Source: a virus
Length of the DNA: 64,000 nt
Strand: one strand, 5' to 3'
UHGV virus genome: UHGV-0042229
Position numbers and translations under genes: made by a program. Below, piece by piece: positions 1,124 through 43,449 of this stretch (position 1 is its first letter; each line of letters opens with the position of its first letter). The notes beneath the pieces are model-generated. The model saw only the letters and a list, made by a program, of their open reading frames with translations, searched no databases and was not told the origin of the DNA.

Positions 1124-1387
1124 ATGACATTTTATGTACATATCGTGATGTTATCCCTTCTTGGTGGGGTGTATTCGTATTTGAGTGGGCTATGTGAAAA
1201 CCGTTACGAGTCTTCATGCAAGAAATTGCTGGCCGAATGTATTTCCGCCGTACTTGCTGGCTTTATTGGCATGTATCTCGCGGAATATAAGGACATGAAT
1301 GAAAGCCTTCAGAGCTGCATGGTTCTTATTTTCAGCGCCAATAGCAGGCTTATTATTGAAGGTTCCAAAAGTCGGTTGAATAGGTAA
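1124..1387 (+). CDS. small hydrophobic protein, possibly holin-like
   Basis: 87-aa ORF with hydrophobic segments directly upstream of lydA. Confidence 0.3.
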   Translation: MTFYVHIVMLSLLGGVYSYLSGLCENRYESSCKKLLAECISAVLAGFIGMYLAEYKDMNESLQSCMVLIFSANSRLIIEGSKSRLNR

Positions 1388-1461
1388 GTCTCTTATGCAA
1401 CATAACCGGTTGAGAAGTTACTTTGCATACCATTACCTCCTGACAACGTAGGAGGGAACTT

Positions 1462-1791
1462 GTGCTTGACACACAGGAATTAGCTCCAGTTGCTATTGCG
1501 CTCCTGCTTTCAGTAATTGGTGGGATAGGCACGTTCCTGATGGATGTCCGAGACGGTCGCCAGTCTGGCAATTTGTTGGGATTGGTTACGGAGATCTTTG
1601 TTGCAGTGACAGCTGGCGCGGTGGCGTACCTATTGGGGCAACACGAGGGCTGGGAGTTATCAATTACGTACTTAATGGTAACGATAGCCAGCAATAACGG
1701 TCATGAGGTGATTTCAGGGATGAAACGAGTGAATATCGATAGCATTCTGAATGTTCTTACAAGTTTGGTGAAAAAGGGAGGCGGGAAATGA
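1462..1791 (+). CDS. lydA: holin LydA-like membrane protein
   Basis: 109-aa protein with multiple TM segments; size and position match P1 lydA upstream of the darA operon. Confidence 0.5.
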   Translation: MLDTQELAPVAIALLLSVIGGIGTFLMDVRDGRQSGNLLGLVTEIFVAVTAGAVAYLLGQHEGWELSITYLMVTIASNNGHEVISGMKRVNIDSILNVLTSLVKKGGGK

Positions 1792-2231
1792 TTGGCTGGG
1801 GTGTATGCGTTCTTGCGTTAGCCTTAGCCGATCGCTATTTGCTAAAACGCAAGGACATCACGCATTTAGAACTTGGTGATGTGGAAATTAAACCGGGTTT
1901 CATCCGGGTGCCGTTCAAATACCGGTCTAAATTCCCGTTTTTGCGCGGCGCAACGGTCAGATATTGGATCCGCGATGTTCAGAAGCCGACGACAGTGATT
2001 GAAGGCGAACAACGTTGTTTGACGTCGGCTGAACAGGGCGAAAACAGTGAATGGTTGTACATACCCACTGAATATATGGGTAAAGGAGAGCGACTGTGGC
2101 ATTTCAACGTCATGGTTACGCATGGCGACTCGTTCATTAACCCGTTGTATCGGATTTTCCCTGTTACTCAGCAAATCCGCAGAAGTTACGTAATAAATCT
2201 CGCACAGGATGTGTCAGATGACGAAAAATAA
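1788..2231 (+). CDS. lydB: LydB-like antiholin
   Basis: 147-aa ORF overlapping the lydA stop by 4 nt; P1 gene order. Confidence 0.45.
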   Translation: MIGWGVCVLALALADRYLLKRKDITHLELGDVEIKPGFIRVPFKYRSKFPFLRGATVRYWIRDVQKPTTVIEGEQRCLTSAEQGENSEWLYIPTEYMGKGERLWHFNVMVTHGDSFINPLYRIFPVTQQIRRSYVINLAQDVSDDEK

Positions 2232-2820
2232 GTATGCAACGGTCGATTTTGACCAGGTTAATGAAAAGGGGCTGAAATCCCTTATCGCGGCGATCAATAA
2301 AACCGGTGTTACGGTAATTGAGGTTGACTCCAGCAACCGCGCAACAACGAAAGATGGCGTTAAAGTTAAAACCGCAAAGCTGGTTCTTAACGACGGACAA
2401 ATTCTTGCCATACAGGTAAACGATACTGGCGATATATCGTCTGTGAGGCTGAATGGAAAAGCTATTCCTAACGCTCAGTCGCCGGATATCAAGACGCTTG
2501 GTACCGTCATGGGGCAAGCGGCCCGCAAAAACTCCGCAAAATTCCAGAAATCACTGATCGCCAAAGCGAAACGTGTTGCCAATCCGGTAGACAAGAAACC
2601 GGCAGTAAAATCCAACTTTCAGCGCCTGCAAGAGGCAAAACAGCGGAATGCTCAGGTGGTTGCCGCTTATAAATCAGCGCAGAACTCGGTGTCTTTCAAT
2701 CAACAGCAGATCACTGATTTGCGGGCGAAGCTGGATAAGGAGACAGGCCGACTCAATAACGAAAAGGCCCGAAATGGCGAACTCAAACGCCGTCTTAAGC
2801 AACTGAAAGCAGGAAATTAA
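2209..2820 (+). CDS. darA-operon protein (Hdf-like position)
   Basis: 203-aa ORF immediately upstream of and coupled to the 639-aa DarA-like gene. Confidence 0.4.
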   Translation: MCQMTKNKYATVDFDQVNEKGLKSLIAAINKTGVTVIEVDSSNRATTKDGVKVKTAKLVLNDGQILAIQVNDTGDISSVRLNGKAIPNAQSPDIKTLGTVMGQAARKNSAKFQKSLIAKAKRVANPVDKKPAVKSNFQRLQEAKQRNAQVVAAYKSAQNSVSFNQQQITDLRAKLDKETGRLNNEKARNGELKRRLKQLKAGN

Positions 2821-22384: not shown

Positions 22385-22993
22385 TTATCGTGGTGCCGAT
22401 GATGCGATAGCCTGTATGATGTTATCAATATCGTTATCGTTCAGCATGAATATAGGTACACCATTAGAGTTTGCATTTTTTTCAGTGCTCATCAAACAAA
22501 GCCCCTCATACATGCCGCGAGTTTTTTTGAAATTGGCGACTGATGGAGTGGTGTAATTTCCTTTAAAGTGCATTCCGGCTGATTCATAAAAAGGAACCAA
22601 ATCAGACTGGCAAATCAAAGCGACCTCATTTGGAAATGCAAGTATTTCTGCCAGTATATTACTTCCAAGTCCATTACCACGATATTGCTCATATACATAT
22701 ATTTTATGACAGTACAACGGAAAATTTCCCGATGGATGTCCGAAGATTAAGGCGTATCCGAACAAGTTTTCTTCATTAGTAAAGCCCATAATGCGCAAAT
22801 GACCGGCTCGGTAACACTCTTCAAAAACGTTAATTATGTAGCTTCTCGCTGCTTTCAGCTCCTCTTCTGTCGGGAACATCATCAACCCCATAAGCGATGG
22901 AGTATAGACCAGATCCTGAAGAATCCCATTAGCTTCATTTTCGAAAATTAGCGGTAAGTGCGGTACAATTTCATTTGCCGAGGTATTAGACAT
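22385..22993 (-). CDS. GNAT-family N-acetyltransferase
   Basis: Acetyl-CoA-binding motif YEQYRGNGLGSNIL; gene and flanks are conspicuously AT-rich. Confidence 0.7.
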   Translation of the reverse strand: MSNTSANEIVPHLPLIFENEANGILQDLVYTPSLMGLMMFPTEEELKAARSYIINVFEECYRAGHLRIMGFTNEENLFGYALIFGHPSGNFPLYCHKIYVYEQYRGNGLGSNILAEILAFPNEVALICQSDLVPFYESAGMHFKGNYTTPSVANFKKTRGMYEGLCLMSTEKNANSNGVPIFMLNDNDIDNIIQAIASSAPR

Positions 22994-23834: not shown

Positions 23835-24023
23835 AGCGCCCCCTACAAAAAAGAAAAGCCACCAGCGGCGGCTTAGCAATACAACTGAAGGTAGCGCCCG
23901 GTACTCAGACTGTGCCGTCCATGGAATATTTGAAAAGGGATCCATCCGTACCGGGCATGTGATGATTCTGACTGAAGTCACTTGTCAGTTGTCAATCATT
24001 TATCATTAAAAATAATATATTTA

Positions 24024-24584
24024 TTAGTGCATGATGTTTGCCATCTCATAGGCGTCAGCCAGTAACTCCATCTCTGACTTGTTCAGCAGGGTGAATTCTT
24101 TCTTGCCTCCAACCACACCATCGGCATGAACAGGGACCAGCCAGGGGTATTTTGCTCTTACTTCAGCCGGTGCTGCATGCTGGTGGTGCCATCTACAAAG
24201 TGGCAATTGCTTTTTATGACAACCCGGCGCGGTACGACCGGCGATATGGTGCAGAGACACCTCATTAGATATTACTCCATGCATATAGCAGGCAATGCAG
24301 GGGAGAGTGCCAAGAGCATTGGCGATGCGCCGTTCCTCCGCCGTTGGTGTTCTCCCCTTCAAGCCACGAGATTTTATTTTTACCGCGCTTTTCCGCGTTT
24401 TGCTGGCTGGTGGGCGCTCTTTCTGTTTAGCGATACGGCGGTCGATAGTATCTCGCATTTTCTGATATTGAGATTCTCGCCAGACCGGATCAGCCAACTT
24501 CTCCCGTTGCCGAGCGATCGCTCGTTCTCTGGCTGCCTTCTGCCACTTGCGGCACTGTTCAATTTTTTGTTCGATTGTTTTCAT
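24024..24584 (-). CDS. ref: Ref recombination-enhancement HNH endonuclease
   Basis: 186 aa, MKTIEQKIEQCRKWQKAARER..., Cys/His-rich HNH-like core; matches P1 Ref as recalled. Confidence 0.85.
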   Translation of the reverse strand: MKTIEQKIEQCRKWQKAARERAIARQREKLADPVWRESQYQKMRDTIDRRIAKQKERPPASKTRKSAVKIKSRGLKGRTPTAEERRIANALGTLPCIACYMHGVISNEVSLHHIAGRTAPGCHKKQLPLCRWHHQHAAPAEVRAKYPWLVPVHADGVVGGKKEFTLLNKSEMELLADAYEMANIMH

Positions 24585-24590
24585 ATGGTC

Positions 24591-24617
24591 AAAAAAAAGG
24601 CGGCCTAATGGCCGCCT
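24591..24617 (-). terminator. intrinsic terminator or attenuator hairpin just upstream of the ref ATG
   Basis: Minus strand reads GGCGGCC-ATTA-GGCCGCC followed by T8. Confidence 0.45.
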
Positions 24618-24830
24618 ATGATGTCAAGGAGTTAAGTAATGGCACGTCTTCGTAGTTGACAAAAACTGCGGCTCAATTATAACAATCATTTAGAGCAATG
24701 GTAGCTATTTTATTTATCGCGAATCACATTTTTTCTCTTCAGTACCTGTGTGCTATACTCCTTCTTGATTGATTGGATGCGGAATACAAACCCGCTCTTT
24801 TGTGCAGCCTGGCTCCTTGCCAGGCTTTTT

Positions 24831-25142
24831 TTATTTCATCATGGAAGCTGTTAATGCTTTGGACCTTGCTGAACTGATTGAGAGGGCTTTGTCAACGTGC
24901 CCCAAAAATTCGCCAAACTCAGACATCACTTTGGCAAAACCGCGCCGTGCTTCTTCCTCGGTGGCATTCATCACGAAATGTTCAGCACTACGCATACTTT
25001 TGACAGGGAACGCAACGGATATTGAGTCAATATCAGGCATTCTATCGCTCAACTTTACAGTGACAATGACGGCTGGCGACTGAATATTAGTGCTTACAGA
25101 CAGCACTACATATTTTCCGTCGATGTTGAAATCCTTTCTCAT
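24831..25142 (-). CDS. hypothetical protein between cre and ref (cra position)
   Basis: 103-aa ORF downstream of cre on the same strand. Confidence 0.4.
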   Translation of the reverse strand: MRKDFNIDGKYVVLSVSTNIQSPAVIVTVKLSDRMPDIDSISVAFPVKSMRSAEHFVMNATEEEARRGFAKVMSEFGEFLGHVDKALSISSARSKALTASMMK

Positions 25143-25158
25143 ATATCACCATAAATAT

Positions 25159-25175
25159 CAAATAATTAGAGCAAT
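25159..25175 (-). promoter_or_regulatory. C1 operator-like site (3 mismatches)
   Basis: CAAATAATTAGAGCAAT between cre and the 103-aa ORF. Confidence 0.4.
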
Positions 25176-25192
25176 TTCTTATGCATTGACGG

Positions 25193-26224
25193 CTAATCAC
25201 CATCTTCCAGCAGGCGCACCATTGCCCCCGTTTCACTATCCAGATTACGGATATAGTTCATGACAATATTTACGTTGGTCCAGCCACCAGCTTGCATGAT
25301 CTCCGGTATTGAAACTCCGGCGCGGGCCATATCTCGCGCGGCTCCGACACGGGCACTGTGTCCAGACCAGGCCAGGTACCTCTGACCAGAGTCATCCTTA
25401 GCCCCGTAAATCAATCGGTGAGTTGCTTCAAAAATCCCTTCCAGGGCGCGAGTTGATAGCTGGCTGGTGGATGATGGCGAGGCAACACCATTTTTTCTGA
25501 CCCGGCAAAACAAGTAGTTATTCGGATCATCAGCCACACCAGAGACAGAAATCCATCGCTCGACCAGTTTAGTTACCCCCAGGCTAAGTGCCTTCTCTAC
25601 ACCTGCGGTGCTAACCAGCGTTTTCGTTCTGCCAATATGGATTAACATTCTCCCACCGTCAGTACGTGAGATATCTTTAACCCTGATCCTGGCAATTTCG
25701 GCTATACGTAACAGGGTGTTATAAGCAATCCCCAGAAATGCCAGATTACGTATATCCTGGCAGCGATCGCTATTTTCCATGAGTGAACGAACCTGGTCGA
25801 AATCAGTGCGTTCGAACGCTAGTGCCTGTTTTGCACGTTCACCGGCATCAACGTTTTCTTTTCGGATCCGCCGCATGACCAGTGAAACAGCATTGCTGTC
25901 ACTTGGTCGTGGCAGCCCGGACCGACGATGAAGCATGTTTAGCTGGCCCAAATGTTGCTGGATAGTTTTTACTGCCAGACCGCGCGCCTGAAGATATAGA
26001 AGATAATCGCGAACATCTTCAGGTTCTGCGGGAAACCATTTCCGGTTATTCAATTTGCACCATGCCGCCCATGACCGGCAAACGGACAGAAGCATTTTCC
26101 AGGTATGCTCAGAAAACGCCTGGCGATCCCTGAACATATCCATCAGGTTCTTGCGAACCTCATCACTCGTTGCATCGACCGGCAATGCAGGCAAATTTTG
26201 GTGTACGGTCAGTAAATTGGACAT
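25193..26224 (-). CDS. cre: Cre tyrosine site-specific recombinase
   Basis: 343-aa translation MSNLLTVHQNLPALPVDATSDEVRKNLMDMF...MVRLLEDGD is the P1 Cre sequence as recalled, barring a few conservative differences. Confidence 0.97.
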   Translation of the reverse strand: MSNLLTVHQNLPALPVDATSDEVRKNLMDMFRDRQAFSEHTWKMLLSVCRSWAAWCKLNNRKWFPAEPEDVRDYLLYLQARGLAVKTIQQHLGQLNMLHRRSGLPRPSDSNAVSLVMRRIRKENVDAGERAKQALAFERTDFDQVRSLMENSDRCQDIRNLAFLGIAYNTLLRIAEIARIRVKDISRTDGGRMLIHIGRTKTLVSTAGVEKALSLGVTKLVERWISVSGVADDPNNYLFCRVRKNGVASPSSTSQLSTRALEGIFEATHRLIYGAKDDSGQRYLAWSGHSARVGAARDMARAGVSIPEIMQAGGWTNVNIVMNYIRNLDSETGAMVRLLEDGD

Positions 26225-26550
26225 TTAACACTCAGATAATGGTTTTAAGTAAAGTGTACAGGATCGGCTCTGCCTTTACCTGTTTATGGTTCTCGTCATA
26301 GAAACGCCAGCGACCGCGCGTGCGTTCTATCTTTTCTTCACCGCGCGATAATGACAGTTGGCAACTATCACGATCAAACCCTTTTGCCCGCCAGTAACCA
26401 CGATTTTTCTCAAGCTCAAGATGAGTGGACACTTTAGCAGCTGAATATCCCATTTTTCACCTCTGATTGATTGGTGGTGCTAAGTGCGCTACGCGAAATC
26501 TGGAGCACTAACACTGCCAACATTTCGCAGATTTTACGTAGCGCAACCTT

Positions 26551-38104: not shown

Positions 38105-38225
38105 TTGACCATTGCTACCGACCGGACCACCTTAACATCCGGTCTGTATATAGACTATTTTTTACGTGCCGGAAGTCACCCTTAACTCCCTTCCGGCCCT
38201 TGCCAGACGGCACAAAGGATGCGCT

Positions 38226-41200
38226 ATGACTCATCAGACACACACTATTGCTGAATCCAATAACTTTATCGTCCTTGATAAGTACATCAAAGCTGAGCCA
38301 ACAGGCGACAGCTACCAGAGCGAATCGGACCTGGAACGTGAACTGATTCAGGACCTGCGGAATCAGGGCTATGAATTTATATCCGTAAAATCTCAGTCGG
38401 CTATGCTGTCCAATGTTCGGGAACAGCTTCAGAGCCTCAATGGTGTGGTGTTTAATGACAGCGAGTGGCGGCGTTTCACGGAGCAGTATCTGGACAACCC
38501 GAGCGATGGCATTCTGGATAAAACCCGTAAAATCCATATCGACTATATCTGCGACTTTATTTTTGACGACGGGCGACTTGAGAACATCTATTTGATAGAT
38601 AAAAAGAATCTCATGCGCAATAAGGTGCAGATTATCCAGCAGTTTGAACAGACGGGTTCTCATGCTAACCGTTATGACGTCACGATCCTGGTTAATGGCT
38701 TACCACTGGTACAAATCGAACTGAAAAAGCGCGGCGTGGCGATTCGTGAGGCTTTCAACCAGATACATCGTTACAGTAAAGAGAGTTTTAACAGCGAAAA
38801 TTCCCTGTTTAAGTATCTGCAACTGTTTGTCATTTCTAACGGCACCGATACCCGTTACTTTGCCAACACCACAAAGCGCGATAAAAACAGTTTTGATTTC
38901 ACCATGAACTGGGCGAAATCAGACAACACGCTGATTAAAGACCTCAAAGACTTTACCGCTACCTTTTTCCAGAAACATACTCTGCTGAATGTTCTGGTGA
39001 ACTACAGCGTGTTTGACAGTAGTCAGACGTTACTGGTGATGCGACCGTACCAGATTGCCGCCACCGAGCGCATTCTGTGGAAAATTAAGAGCTCCTTTAC
39101 AGCGAAGAACTGGTCAAAACCGGAAAGCGGTGGGTATATCTGGCACACTACCGGTTCTGGTAAAACCCTTACCAGCTTTAAAGCCGCGCGTCTGGCAACA
39201 GAGCTGGACTTTATTGATAAAGTCTTCTTTGTGGTCGACAGAAAAGACCTCGATTACCAGACCATGAAGGAATATCAGCGTTTTTCGCCAGACAGCGTCA
39301 ACGGCTCGGAAAATACCGCAGGCCTTAAACGAAATCTGGATAAGGACGATAACAAAATTATCGTCACTACTATTCAGAAACTCAATAACCTGATGAAAGC
39401 AGAAAGCGACCTGCCTGTATATAATCAGCAAGTGGTGTTCATATTTGATGAATGCCACCGCAGCCAGTTTGGAGAAGCGCAGAAAAACCTGAAGAAGAAA
39501 TTCAAACGCTATTATCAGTTTGGTTTTACCGGCACCCCTATTTTCCCGGAAAACGCCTTAGGCTCAGAAACAACCGCCAGCGTATTTGGTCGTGAATTGC
39601 ATTCGTATGTAATTACCGATGCGATTCGTGACGAAAAAGTGCTCAAATTCAAGGTGGACTACAACGATGTGCGGCCACAGTTTAAGTCTTTAGAGACAGA
39701 AACTGACGAGAAAAAACTAAGTGCGGCTGAAAATCAGCAGGCGTTTCTTCATCCCATGCGTATTCAGGAAATCACGCAATATATTCTGAATAATTTCCGC
39801 CAGAAAACTCACCGTACCTTCCCTGGCTCAAAAGGTTTTAATGCTATGTTGGCAGTGAGCAGCGTGGATGCCGCGAAAGCCTATTATGCGACGTTTAAAC
39901 GGTTACAAGAAGAAGCCGCTAATAAATCGGCTACCTATAAACCGCTGCGTATTGCGACAATCTTCTCCTTTGCCGCCAATGAAGAACAAAATGCCATTGG
40001 TGAAATTTCCGATGAAACTTTTGATACCAGCGCAATGGACAGCAGTGCTAAAGAGTTTCTGGACGCTGCAATTCGTGAATATAACAGCCATTTTAAAACT
40101 AACTTTAGCACCGACAGTAACGGTTTTCAGAACTACTATCGTGATTTAGCCCAGCGGGTTAAAAATCAGGATATCGATCTGCTAATTGTCGTGGGGATGT
40201 TTTTAACCGGCTTCGATGCTCCAACATTGAACACGCTATTCGTCGATAAAAACTTGCGTTTTCACGGCCTGATGCAGGCATTTTCCCGCACCAACCGTAT
40301 TTATGATGCAACTAAAACCTTCGGTAATATCGTCACTTTCCGGGATCTGGAACGCTCAACTATTGATGCCATAACGCTGTTTGGTGACAAAAACACCAAA
40401 AATGTGGTGTTAGAAAAGAGTTATACAGAGTATATGGAAGGCTTTACTGATGCTACTACTGGTGAAGCTAAACGCGGCTTCATGACAGTAGTTTCAGAAC
40501 TGGAACAACGGTTCCCTGACCCTACCAGTATTGAAAGTGAAAAAGAGAAGAAAGACTTCGTTAAACTGTTTGGCGAATACCTGCGTGCCGAGAACATCCT
40601 GCAAAACTATGATGAATTTGCCACGCTAAAAGCCCTGCAACAAATCGATCTTAGCGATCCTGTTGCGGTAGAAAAATTCAAAGCAGAACATTATGTGGAT
40701 GATGAAAAGTTCGCTGAATTGCAAACAATTCGTCTCCCTGCTGATCGCAAGATTCAGGATTATCGTTCTGCCTATAACGATATTCGCGACTGGCAGCGCC
40801 GTGAGAAAGAAGCTGAGAAAAAAGAGAAATCAACCACTGACTGGGATGACGTAGTTTTTGAGGTCGATTTGCTGAAGTCTCAGGAAATAAACCTGGATTA
40901 TATCCTTGGACTGATTTTCGAACACAACAGACAAAATAAAGGCAAGGGCGAAATGATCGAAGAGGTCAAACGCTTAATTCGTTCAAGCCTAGGGAACCGT
41001 GCTAAAGAGGGCCTGGTGGTCGATTTTATTCAGCAAACGAACCTGGATGATTTACCGGACAAAGCCAGCATCATTGACGCATTCTTTACGTTTGCTCAAC
41101 GCGAACAGCAACGTGAAGCAGAAGCATTGATAAAAGAAGAAAATCTCAATGAAGATGCAGCAAAACGCTATATTCGCACGTCTTTAAAACGCGAATATGC

Positions 41201-41342
41201 CACCGAAAATGGCACAGAATTAAACGAAACATTACCAAAACTTAGTCCGTTGAATCCGCAATATAAAACGAAAAAACAGGCAGTTTTCCAGAAAATCGTC
41301 TCGTTTATTGAGAAGTTTAAAGGGGTAGGCGGAAAAATATAG
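38226..41342 (+). CDS. hsdR: type IC restriction endonuclease subunit HsdR
   Basis: 1038 aa from [20 protein letters not shown]...; helicase motifs TGSGKT and DECH; ORF track start at 38166 lies upstream in frame. Confidence 0.9.
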
Positions 41343-41429
41343 CCCAATTCGTGTTTTTCTTGCGGGTTCTTTATTAAACCCGCAAGAGATCGTGGGGTTC
41401 CAAATGGCTAATATACTCCCCTTACCCAT

Positions 41430-41516
41430 GCGCGACGATGCCGCCAAAAGTGATAGAGAACAGCCAGAAATAGATCGTGGCCATAATGATTTTGAATGCC
41501 GTGTTCATATTTTCAG
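41430..41516 (-). CDS. possible 28-aa hydrophobic peptide
   Basis: MNTAFKIIMATIYFWLFSITFGGIVAHG after GGAGCTG, downstream of a C1 operator; speculative. Confidence 0.2.
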
Positions 41517-41590
41517 CTCCAGTGATTGATTGGATACATGCCGCGCCTTGCGGCATGTTTTTATTTTCACTTTCTCTGTTTTAAAAATCA

Positions 41591-42186: not shown

Positions 42187-43449
42187 TCAGCGGACGTAAA
42201 TAGTGCCGCAGTTCTCTTTTTCCCATGCATCGCTACGTGCATAGCAAACATCGAGAAGTCTTCTTGCCGCTGTTTCCTCTAAACCCAATTCGACAACCAA
42301 CTGCTCATGACGGCGGGTAACCACATCAAACAGGGTATGCAACCCTTTAGTTGCCAGATCATCAATGAATTCCGGTTCGAACGGCAGCTCTGCATCTGCC
42401 AACATAACCTCTTGCGCCCACTCAACTCGACGGACCAATTCCGGGCGGCGGCTTTCCATCTCTTTACAGATCAATTCATGGAAGAACTCTACCCAACCTT
42501 CCGGCTGGAACTCGCGGAAAATTGCCAACGGCTGGAAGTTTGGCATCAACCATTCGTTGATTCGGATATCAATGGCATAGCCCATGTCGCAGCAGAACTG
42601 ATAAGCAAAGTCCAGCTTAGAAACGATATAAGGACGCTCGTTATTGAACTCTTTAGGCGATGAGATCCCATAAGCCAGGAGGCGCGGGAAGAAGGAGATT
42701 TGCCCTAACGTCGGATGAAGTTTGCTTGCAGGGAAACGGCGCTCAGTAATGCCATACATTTCCTTCTTGAGCGTCGCAAATTTGGCATTCTCATTAACCA
42801 GCGCGGTAACCTCTGCTTTTTTATTAGCAAATGCCACGCGCGCTTCGCTTGCATCTTTAATAGTTTTTTTGAGCTGTTGGTTAAGGTCGGCGACCTGCTT
42901 ACGCAGTTCCTGTCGCTCGCTTTTAGCTTTGTTATAGCGTTTCTCAAGGTTAAAAGGATCAAGTTTCATGATCTCTTTATATTGAGATTTTAGCGTTGAA
43001 ATCTGTGAGTTCCGCAGTTCAACCATCGCGGTCATTTCATTGAGTTTTGTTTCCAGCTCAATGCTTATACGTTCGGCATTATCAGCACGCTGGTTGGCGT
43101 CATGCGTCGCATCGTCGATCGCGTCCTGTTGCTGGCGTTTCAAATGTTCAATTTGCAGCTGAAGCTCTTCAATTTCTTTACCCTTCAGACCGAGATCCAA
43201 CTGCATATTTTCAGCTGCATCTACCAGGGAGTTATGGCTATCAGCTTCTGCGTTATAAACATCAATAAGCTGTGCGTGAAGCATCTCCGCTGACTGAACC
43301 GCATTATCAAAAAAACGCGCTGTGAGGTCATCACAACTAACGCGGCGTTGCGCGGCCCGGATGTTCTGGATAATGGCCGGGATACCGGCATTCAGGACGT
43401 CAGGGATAGATACATTTTCGATTGATTGGTTTTGTGCTGAAGTGATCAT
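42187..43449 (-). CDS. coiled-coil protein, unknown function
   Basis: 420 aa; long heptad-rich central region, Cys/Trp-containing C-terminal domain. Confidence 0.45.
   Translation of the reverse strand: MITSAQNQSIENVSIPDVLNAGIPAIIQNIRAAQRRVSCDDLTARFFDNAVQSAEMLHAQLIDVYNAEADSHNSLVDAAENMQLDLGLKGKEIEELQLQIEHLKRQQQDAIDDATHDANQRADNAERISIELETKLNEMTAMVELRNSQISTLKSQYKEIMKLDPFNLEKRYNKAKSERQELRKQVADLNQQLKKTIKDASEARVAFANKKAEVTALVNENAKFATLKKEMYGITERRFPASKLHPTLGQISFFPRLLAYGISSPKEFNNERPYIVSKLDFAYQFCCDMGYAIDIRINEWLMPNFQPLAIFREFQPEGWVEFFHELICKEMESRRPELVRRVEWAQEVMLADAELPFEPEFIDDLATKGLHTLFDVVTRRHEQLVVELGLEETAARRLLDVCYARSDAWEKENCGTIYVR

Follow-up and report, generated by a model that had tools for sequence, protein, structure and literature searches.

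Several described RNA systems of phages and their hosts offer a comparison for a predicted small RNA (sRNA) in UHGV virus genome UHGV-0042229, which was analysed here over a stretch of 64,000 nucleotides (the window). The OOP RNA of phage lambda is a short, terminator-ended RNA that lies convergent and tail-to-tail with a gene linked to the establishment of lysogeny, overlaps the cII coding region by ~50 nt, and acts in cis via RNase III. In the IstR-1/TisB and OhsC/ShoB systems, a trans-encoded type I antitoxin sRNA is complementary to the leader of a tiny hydrophobic open reading frame (ORF). The Hfq-dependent prophage sRNAs of Escherichia coli, such as DicF, AgvB/AsxR, the Pas sRNAs, and StxS, are 60-80 nt long and combine their own promoter, a single-stranded seed, an internal hairpin, a U-rich stretch, and a Rho-independent terminator with a long U-tail, and have multiple targets at start regions. 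The c4 RNA is processed from an operon transcript that is under its control and pairs via two loops. It is a P1-encoded trans-acting small RNA that pairs with short repeated boxes at a ribosome-binding region, silencing a gene of the lytic pathway. Its description as the antisense RNA of immI in P1 and P7 goes back to Citron & Schuster 1990, as cited in PMC8201110.

The window represents a P1-type phage-plasmid, in which positions 24000-25300 are 96.6% identical to P1 nt 1360-2661 (reverse orientation) and the 401 bases of 24500-24900 are 100% identical to plasmid NZ_CP009051.1 of E. coli NCCP15648. Between the genes c8 and ref, fold and conservation predict an sRNA of ~66-67 nt on the plus strand (24767..24832), which is, with a probability of roughly 0.7, a functional phage sRNA acting in trans. 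It appears to be a comparatively well-supported gene and would in kind be an ordinary base-pairing sRNA with a putative regulon. The likeness to c4 lies in the predicted trans action of a P1-encoded RNA on short repeated boxes, but the predicted sRNA has its own promoter and terminator, a linear 5' seed, several dispersed targets, and no sequence in common with c4. Likewise, the size and layout of the E. coli prophage sRNAs recur in it, whereas it has no sequence or Rfam relationship to them and its putative targets so far are phage, not host, genes. A search of Rfam 15 at a permissive threshold returned at best SorX (22.6 bits; gathering threshold 46.6) and STnc50 (25.4 bits; threshold 55), with no family reaching gathering. 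Complementarity to the leader of a tiny hydrophobic ORF was detected for a 28-aa ORF of the window and for gene_104 of Cronobacter phage JK004, similar to IstR-1 and OhsC, but the peptides match no toxin family and the sRNA also matches the non-toxin genes cra, pmgS, and ref. The convergent, tail-to-tail position relative to c8 resembles that of OOP, but the overlap with c8 is the stop codon only (24831-24833) and what is conserved is a seed with matches at distant genes. A substantial coding overlap of the OOP type is absent, and the complementarity concerns only a possible c8 3' untranslated region (3'UTR) or read-through RNA.

The predicted sRNA promoter (24731..24759, plus strand) comprises the −35 hexamer TTTTCT (TTTTCA in P1), a 17-nt spacer, and the extended −10 element TGcTATACT at 24751-24759; a promoter scan of P1 also reported TTTTCA/17/TATACT with the upstream TG, and the sequence is that of an extended −10. 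The preliminary description of this DNA, made from its letters, had recognised this element but placed it at 24757-24766. From this sigma-70 promoter, transcription would start at G24767, and the terminator would end the RNA in a U-tract overlapping the c8 stop codon; the predicted RNA corresponds to the complement of about 1828..1894 in the P1 record NC_005856. The layout of the predicted sRNA consists of a single-stranded seed GAUUGAUUGG (24767-24776), stem-loop 1 (24775-24798), a U-rich linker, the terminator, and the U-tract (24827-24832), and the fold of the window type gave a 7-nt free 5' end followed by hairpin, linker, and terminator. The plus-strand terminator (24806..24832) has the stem AGCCUGGC-UCCUU-GCCAGGCU (24806-24826) followed by a run of seven T, which overlaps the c8 stop codon at 24831-24833; its folding z was −3.6 against shuffled controls, and a U-tract is present on one strand only. 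Features reminiscent of an Hfq-binding module are predicted in the P1 type (linker UCUUUUG and U7) and in JK004 (linker AUGUGUGC and tail UCUUUCUUUU).

The preliminary description had allowed for an sRNA of 60-140 nt, the longer form starting at a near-consensus promoter with TTGACA at 24654. The two hexamers are present, TTGACA at 24656-24661 and TATAAC at 24678-24683, with a 16-nt spacer (24656..24683, plus strand), but the near-consensus rating failed, since the −10 ends in C, is replaced by TATAGC in 42 of 60 distinct relatives, including P1 and P7, and was not reported by a consensus scan. Moreover, TATAAC is nothing but the P2ref −10, annotated on the ref strand, read in reverse. The promoter was therefore judged non-functional and the 140-nt transcript rejected as unsupported, whereas the form of ~67 nt from the extended −10 is supported by the comparison of relatives. 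The ORF list also bore out that no ORF of meaningful length lies between promoter and terminator. Two kinds of control were considered for the sRNA promoter and rejected. A late (Lpa) promoter would carry the −22 box AAGTnACTT of LPhot and LPmat, which is absent upstream of the sRNA −10, and for control by C1 no overlapping operator match was found at up to 3 mismatches.

A large protein database contained no C8 homologues below 83% identity, and the diverged relatives needed for covariation were therefore reached via Cre. In Cronobacter phage JK004, Cre is 79.5% and C8 49% identical at the protein level, and Dre of phage D6 is 41% identical to Cre. Further relatives were Salmonella plasmids and the IMG/VR contigs L181 and L193, the latter two from a pattern scan of the viral collection. 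The JK004 sRNA locus lies opposite the cre strand, tail-to-tail with the last gene of the c8 block, and reads TGaTATACT-CATTCGC-GATTGATTGG-CUUGUAG-CGAAA-CUACAGCC-AUGUGUGC-AGCCCGGC-GAAA-GCUGGGCU-UCUUUCUUUU; in the Salmonella plasmids, the sRNA gene is likewise tail-to-tail with the c8 block. JK004 (gene_58, L172 3924-4082) and the Salmonella plasmids (L176 3110-3268) carry, between the c8 homologue and the sRNA gene, an extra gene for a 52-aa two-helix membrane protein, which is absent from P1-type genomes.

In JK004, the Salmonella plasmids, L181, and L193, TGaTATACT stands exactly 7 nt before GATTGATTGG, and each locus has a U-tailed terminator on the same strand. The seed is identical at 10 of 10 positions across five lineages, and TGTGC is also kept in all of them (GTGC in the Salmonella type). 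Stem-loop 1, by comparison, is represented by three unrelated sequences, and the JK004 and Salmonella-type versions (the two diverged ones that were folded) keep the architecture of the window's sRNA. Across lineages, the terminator stem shows a change from U-A to C-G as well as G.U pairs that would turn into A.C if the other strand were the transcribed one. At the level of sequence, an invariant seed together with rewritten but still folding stems is the signature of an RNA gene with a functional 5' seed.

Conservation within the P1 type was assessed on 80 loci representing 60 distinct sequences, to which the following values refer. The mean minor-allele fraction was 0.008 over 24767-24833, compared with 0.044/0.009/0.094 at c8 codon positions 1/2/3 and 0.089 in the spacer at 24701-24730, that is, the sRNA block was conserved ~11 times more strongly than c8 third positions or the adjacent spacer. 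Variation was detected in one of the nine columns of the extended −10, in five of the seven columns of 24760-24766, and in one of the ten seed columns, with 24767-24775 invariant, and variability ends at 24766, directly before the start that the −10 would give. Deep haplotype splits on both flanks end at this block, and mosaic joints often match conserved stretches, as would be expected if the plus-strand hairpin were a mere insulating terminator and the rest a chance promoter-like sequence hitch-hiking in a recombination joint. This explanation is nevertheless extremely improbable, as promoter, spacing, seed, and architecture are retained where C8 is only 49% identical and the stems are rewritten. 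Avoidance of the sRNA gene by breakpoints among rearranged loci was not significant by the author's estimate. In plasmid pE94-3, a segment with an ISApl1-family transposase gene and a PAP2-family gene ends at the equivalent of window position 24744; it removes ref and the −35 of the sRNA promoter, while the extended −10 and the full sRNA body are kept. The 91-nt element was present in 615 of 5,426 complete E. coli genomes, and the annotations of the Prokaryotic Genome Annotation Pipeline under the sampled plasmid hits contained no RNA feature at the sRNA locus.

The seed complement CCAAUCAAUC is located at sense-strand translation starts, namely in the cre-operon leader, pmgS, the small hydrophobic ORF, and the ref gene of JK004, and the exact 10-mer CCAATCAATC occurs five times in the window against 0.17 copies expected. 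The copy in the cre-operon leader (26465..26474, minus strand) covers −21..−12 of the cra ATG, abuts the Shine–Dalgarno (SD) sequence, belongs to the leader of the P3cre transcript, and is intact in 84 of 85 loci. Another box, ATCCAATCAATC (41524..41535, minus), offers 12 nt of pairing and lies in the leader that follows pap under C1 control, with 15 nt between it and the ATG of the small ORF. This unannotated ORF (41422..41508, minus), a putative target in the Op88 leader between pap and the next gene, has the SD sequence GGAG and encodes the 28-aa hydrophobic peptide MNTAFKIIMATIYFWLFSITFGGIVAHG, for which Pfam and NCBIfam gave no match. Its size and hydrophobicity are reminiscent of type I toxins, and JK004 harbours a related small ORF (MHLIFKLAITAFY...) with an orthologous box at the same place after pap. 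A further box lies inside pmgS (43420..43429, minus) at +21..+30 of the ATG, within the Op86 operon in P1, and occupies the same position in the JK004 and Salmonella plasmid orthologues, where the flanking codons have diverged. Conservation of the boxes within the P1 type is uninformative, because their flanks are equally conserved. One more copy (52373-52382, plus; P1 69779-69788, minus) is antisense to a dbn-like gene and away from annotated starts; it is absent from JK004 and the Salmonella plasmid and possibly arose by chance. P1 itself has four non-self copies, at −21..−12 of cra, at +21..+30 of pmgS, in the leader after pap, and antisense to dbn.

The placement of the boxes was compared with that of all other 10-mers. 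In P1, only 8 of 154,315 10-mers had at least three sense hits within −130..+30 of annotated starts; besides the box, these are seven 10-mers from three repeat families that rank among the most over-represented in the genome and that we take to be the C1 operator, the Chi-like GCTGGTGG motif, and the RepA iterons. In JK004, all six box copies are on the gene-sense strand: before the first gene of the gene_62-cra-cre operon (−26..−17), in pmgS (+21..+30), at the small hydrophobic ORF after pap, before the small membrane protein gene_104, at the ATG of the Ref homologue (−10..−1, just after the attenuator), and at the sRNA locus. The box ranks first of 157,736 JK004 10-mers for start-codon proximity, with a binomial probability of ~1e-5 by the author's estimate (start windows making up a fraction of 0.041, with four of five non-self copies in annotated windows). 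In the Salmonella plasmid CP053320, the four copies are likewise all in sense orientation, three of them non-self and located at a gene_104-like ORF, at +21 of pmgS, and in the cre-region leader. Taken together, 10 of the 12 non-self copies in P1, JK004, and CP053320 are near start codons of other genes, and the remaining two are a copy in a leader 121 nt before pmgT and the copy antisense to dbn. Three sites, i.e., the cre-operon leader, pmgS +21, and the small ORF, are orthologous across lineages despite diverged flanks; the orthology of the cre-region leader is looser, with the box preceding gene_62 in JK004 and an extra upstream leader ORF in the Salmonella plasmid. The predicted duplex energies were −16.6 kcal/mol for the cra start region and −17.2 kcal/mol for the small-ORF start region, and none of 300 shuffled seeds gave a second-best duplex value as low. 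A second seed, ACAAAAGAGC (complement of sRNA nt 28-37), has five P1 copies internal to dmt, ban, c1, and U', and was rejected as chance.

The bases beside the boxes also follow the sRNA. JK004 combines a C at sRNA base 11 with a G immediately 5' of the box at each of its five targets. The Salmonella plasmid instead has UUU at sRNA bases 11-13 and an A in that target position at each of its three targets, which lengthens the pairing to 13 bp; in L193, bases 11-13 read UAU. At the orthologous sites (pmgS, the gene_104-like ORF, and the cre-region leader), the target changed from G to A alongside the change from C to U in the sRNA. This pattern is predicted by RNA–RNA pairing and, on the sequence evidence, not by a box bound by a protein or serving as a ribosome enhancer. 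It bears directly on the proposal that no sRNA exists, that CCAAUCAAUC is a cis-acting element of mRNA leaders (an enhancer or a protein site), and that the conserved block, which would then be the 3'UTR of c8 or the leader of the following gene, holds a further copy of this element. Consistent with this proposal, all box copies of JK004 and the Salmonella plasmid are mRNA-sense, an SD-like AAGGAG follows the box at the sRNA locus on the c8 strand, and the JK004 copy there lies 45-54 nt before gene_57. The proposal is nevertheless very unlikely: P1 has no ORF after the SD-like motif; on the strand opposite the box, its complement is separated by exactly 7 nt from an invariant TGnTATACT; the U-tract and the valid G.U pairs occur only on that strand; and the base beside the box changes in all targets together to match the complementary sRNA base, contrary to what a protein site predicts.

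The sRNA is fully complementary to any c8/cre transcript running on towards ref, and the preliminary description had read it as antisense to read-through from cre. According to this explanation, the plus-strand RNA would primarily be a cis-antisense or convergent unit that neutralises cre/c8 read-through and keeps ref under C1. In its favour, the terminator scan found no minus-strand intrinsic terminator of c8's own before the ref attenuator, which would make read-through RNA fully complementary to the sRNA, and the arrangement is like that of lambda OOP opposite cII. However, JK004 and the Salmonella plasmids keep the same sRNA although their ref lies five genes away with its own operator, promoter, and attenuator, and the invariant seed in a changing body, the boxes at starts of other genes, and the covariation at base 11 would all remain unexplained. 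A primarily cis-antisense role is hence rather unlikely. It cannot be the conserved function, since the other lineages do not have ref next to the sRNA gene, and cis-antisense action on read-through is possible as a side effect.

Under the favoured trans-acting sRNA, the free 5' seed would pair with CCAAUCAAUC boxes upstream of the SD sequence or early in the coding region, where the boxes end 1-6 nt upstream of the SD, abut the ATG, or sit at +21. Putative targets in the P1 type are cra (through the cre-operon leader), the small hydrophobic ORF after pap, and pmgS, and the predicted set of the relatives adds ref and another small membrane protein. Targeting of ref may be lineage-specific, because the Ref homologue of JK004 has a perfect box and the Salmonella homologue has none. 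In the window, ref codons 3-5 (24570-24578, minus; ACAAUCGAA) show a weak 7-bp match, with one G.U pair, to sRNA bases 3-9. Pairing would most probably block initiation or promote decay, and as the duplexes fall within the ribosome footprint, translational repression is the most likely effect, which would place a second control on genes that, for the most part, C1 represses as well. Boxed genes under C1 control are pmgR/S and the leader after pap in P1, and ref in the JK004 lineage. Considering that the sRNA promoter has no overlapping operator, a constitutive fail-safe repressor, active in lysogens and early after infection, would be favoured. We infer the transcription of the sRNA, its Hfq dependence, and the sign of its regulation from these features.

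Several observations weigh against this interpretation. The low-diversity block reaches ~48 nt into c8 and deep haplotype splits appear only beyond, so that part of the sRNA conservation could reflect a recombination joint. Hairpins are able to fold on both strands, and the stem change G24794A within the P1 type favours the opposite strand. The A at base 11 of the P1 sRNA pairs with only one of the three targets (the U of the small-ORF site, for a duplex of 12 bp in the window), the pmgS box at +21..+30 is outside the usual five-codon window for a translational block, and one P1 copy is antisense to dbn. Furthermore, the box could be a cis-acting element of mRNAs that something other than an sRNA recognises. 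Plaque formation does not require the cra-darB region (PMC10695390), implying that any role is not essential for lytic growth, and a full-text literature search, whose reach did not extend to Lobocka 2004, Windle 1988, and Lu 1989, gave no description of the sRNA. More tentatively, and at a strength short of an even chance, a single seed of 10-13 nt might jointly hold down the Cra/Cre operon, Ref (in some lineages), PmgS, and one or two tiny, possibly toxic membrane peptides, forming an RNA immunity layer beside C1 and c4 that decades of P1 genetics missed and that could underlie c8-region phenotypes.

On the opposite strand, the sRNA gene faces the control region of ref (24024..24584, minus; ATG at 24584), which encodes a RecA-dependent HNH nuclease of 186 aa and whose start has no SD sequence. 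In the curated P1 GenBank record, the c8-ref spacer carries the predicted promoters P1ref and P2ref and the C1 operator Oref, all on the ref strand, and nothing is annotated on the strand opposite ref. By alignment to the P1 annotation, P2ref lies at 24676..24704 (minus; −10 TATAAT at 24676-24681) and is overlapped by Oref (24684-24700, minus), where the window has a private A-to-T change at 24689 (1 of 60 sequences), resulting in 4 mismatches to the consensus. The counterpart of P1ref (24618..24645, minus), placed by the P1 annotation, the scan of P1, and alignment, has a −35 damaged by a 1-nt deletion (24643) and reads GTGCCA instead of TTGCCA. The AT-rich spacer between the two divergent promoters contains the H-NS motif CGATAAA (24713..24719, minus); an H-NS motif and H-NS binding were reported (PMC4713147), and a site between the ref and sRNA promoters may affect both.

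The leader terminator of ref (24591..24617, minus), identified by the scan, has an 8-bp GC stem, a 4-nt loop, and U8. The stem (24617..24598) is AGGCGGCC-AUUA-GGCCGCCU, the T8 run extends over 24598-24591 with its first T as the last stem base, and 6 nt (GACCAT) separate it from the ref ATG. Its folding z was −5.4 against shuffled controls, with a U-tract on one strand only. Both terminators proposed in the preliminary description, this one and that of the sRNA, were thus borne out by the terminator scan, by T runs of seven and eight each on a single strand, and by z values of −5.4 and −3.6. The order of elements is that of an attenuated leader, i.e., the P2ref −10 (24676-24681), the terminator, and the ATG, and the Salmonella plasmid has promoter, terminator, and ATG before ref in the same order. 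P2ref transcripts (C1-repressed, with a leader of ~85 nt) must accordingly be expected to pass the terminator 6 nt before the ref ATG, whereas transcripts from the predicted P1ref would escape it, because their predicted start falls inside the 5' arm of the stem. The dependence of ref on terminator read-through, also put forward in the preliminary description, was correct in substance but not new, the element being the 'attenuator' of the title of Windle, Laufer & Hays 1988 (J Bacteriol 170:4881), as cited in PMC4713147 and PMC10695390.

What is new about this otherwise known attenuator is the cross-lineage conservation of its position and structure and its retention after replacement of ref. 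Among P1-type sequences, the stem is kept and the loop varies freely, and the stem substitutions are from G-C to G.U, valid on the minus strand only. At the same place before their Ref homologues, JK004 and the Salmonella plasmids carry GACGGUC-UUCG-GACCGUC plus U8, a different stem sequence. Many P1-like plasmids have ref swapped for other cassettes, e.g., an icd-ant (KilAC) module in E. albertii pEA4_97; the junction is the A-run of the attenuator (24593), leaving an orphan operator-promoter-leader-terminator of ~80 nt with no downstream gene. An antiterminator structure for the ref leader was sought by RNAalifold and suboptimal folds, which gave no conserved alternative pairing, and direct evidence for a P1 antiterminator is still lacking (PMC10695390). 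The sRNA was also considered as the ref antiterminator and rejected, its pairing with the terminator arm being unconvincing.

As for the neighbouring genes, the 103-aa gene at 24831..25142 (minus), tail-to-tail with the sRNA gene, is c8 ('lysogeny establishment protein') and not a cra-like gene as initially named, since cra (26232-26453, minus) is the small gene upstream of cre (25193-26224, minus). The 50-nt cre-c8 spacer contains a C1-operator-like sequence ATTGCTCTAATTATTTG (25159-25175, minus) with 3 mismatches to the consensus; the equivalent sequence in P1 and P7 is ATTGCTATAATTATTTG, which includes a perfect TATAAT, and the P1 record annotates neither an operator nor a promoter at this site. 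Elsewhere in the window, a 1058-aa ORF (38166-41342, plus) replaces pmgT of P1 and looks by eye like an HsdR-type subunit of type I restriction, and a 202-aa ORF in the res/mod region (22385-22993, minus), relative to P1, is acetyltransferase-like, again by eye only.

If the sRNA acts as proposed, it would represent a post-transcriptional layer for prophage maintenance, for control of the recombinase, and for control of Ref, the nuclease behind phage-antibiotic synergy (PMC4713147). Such a layer would concern P1, a classic model phage and the source of Cre-lox, as well as P1-like phage-plasmids, many of which bear resistance genes.

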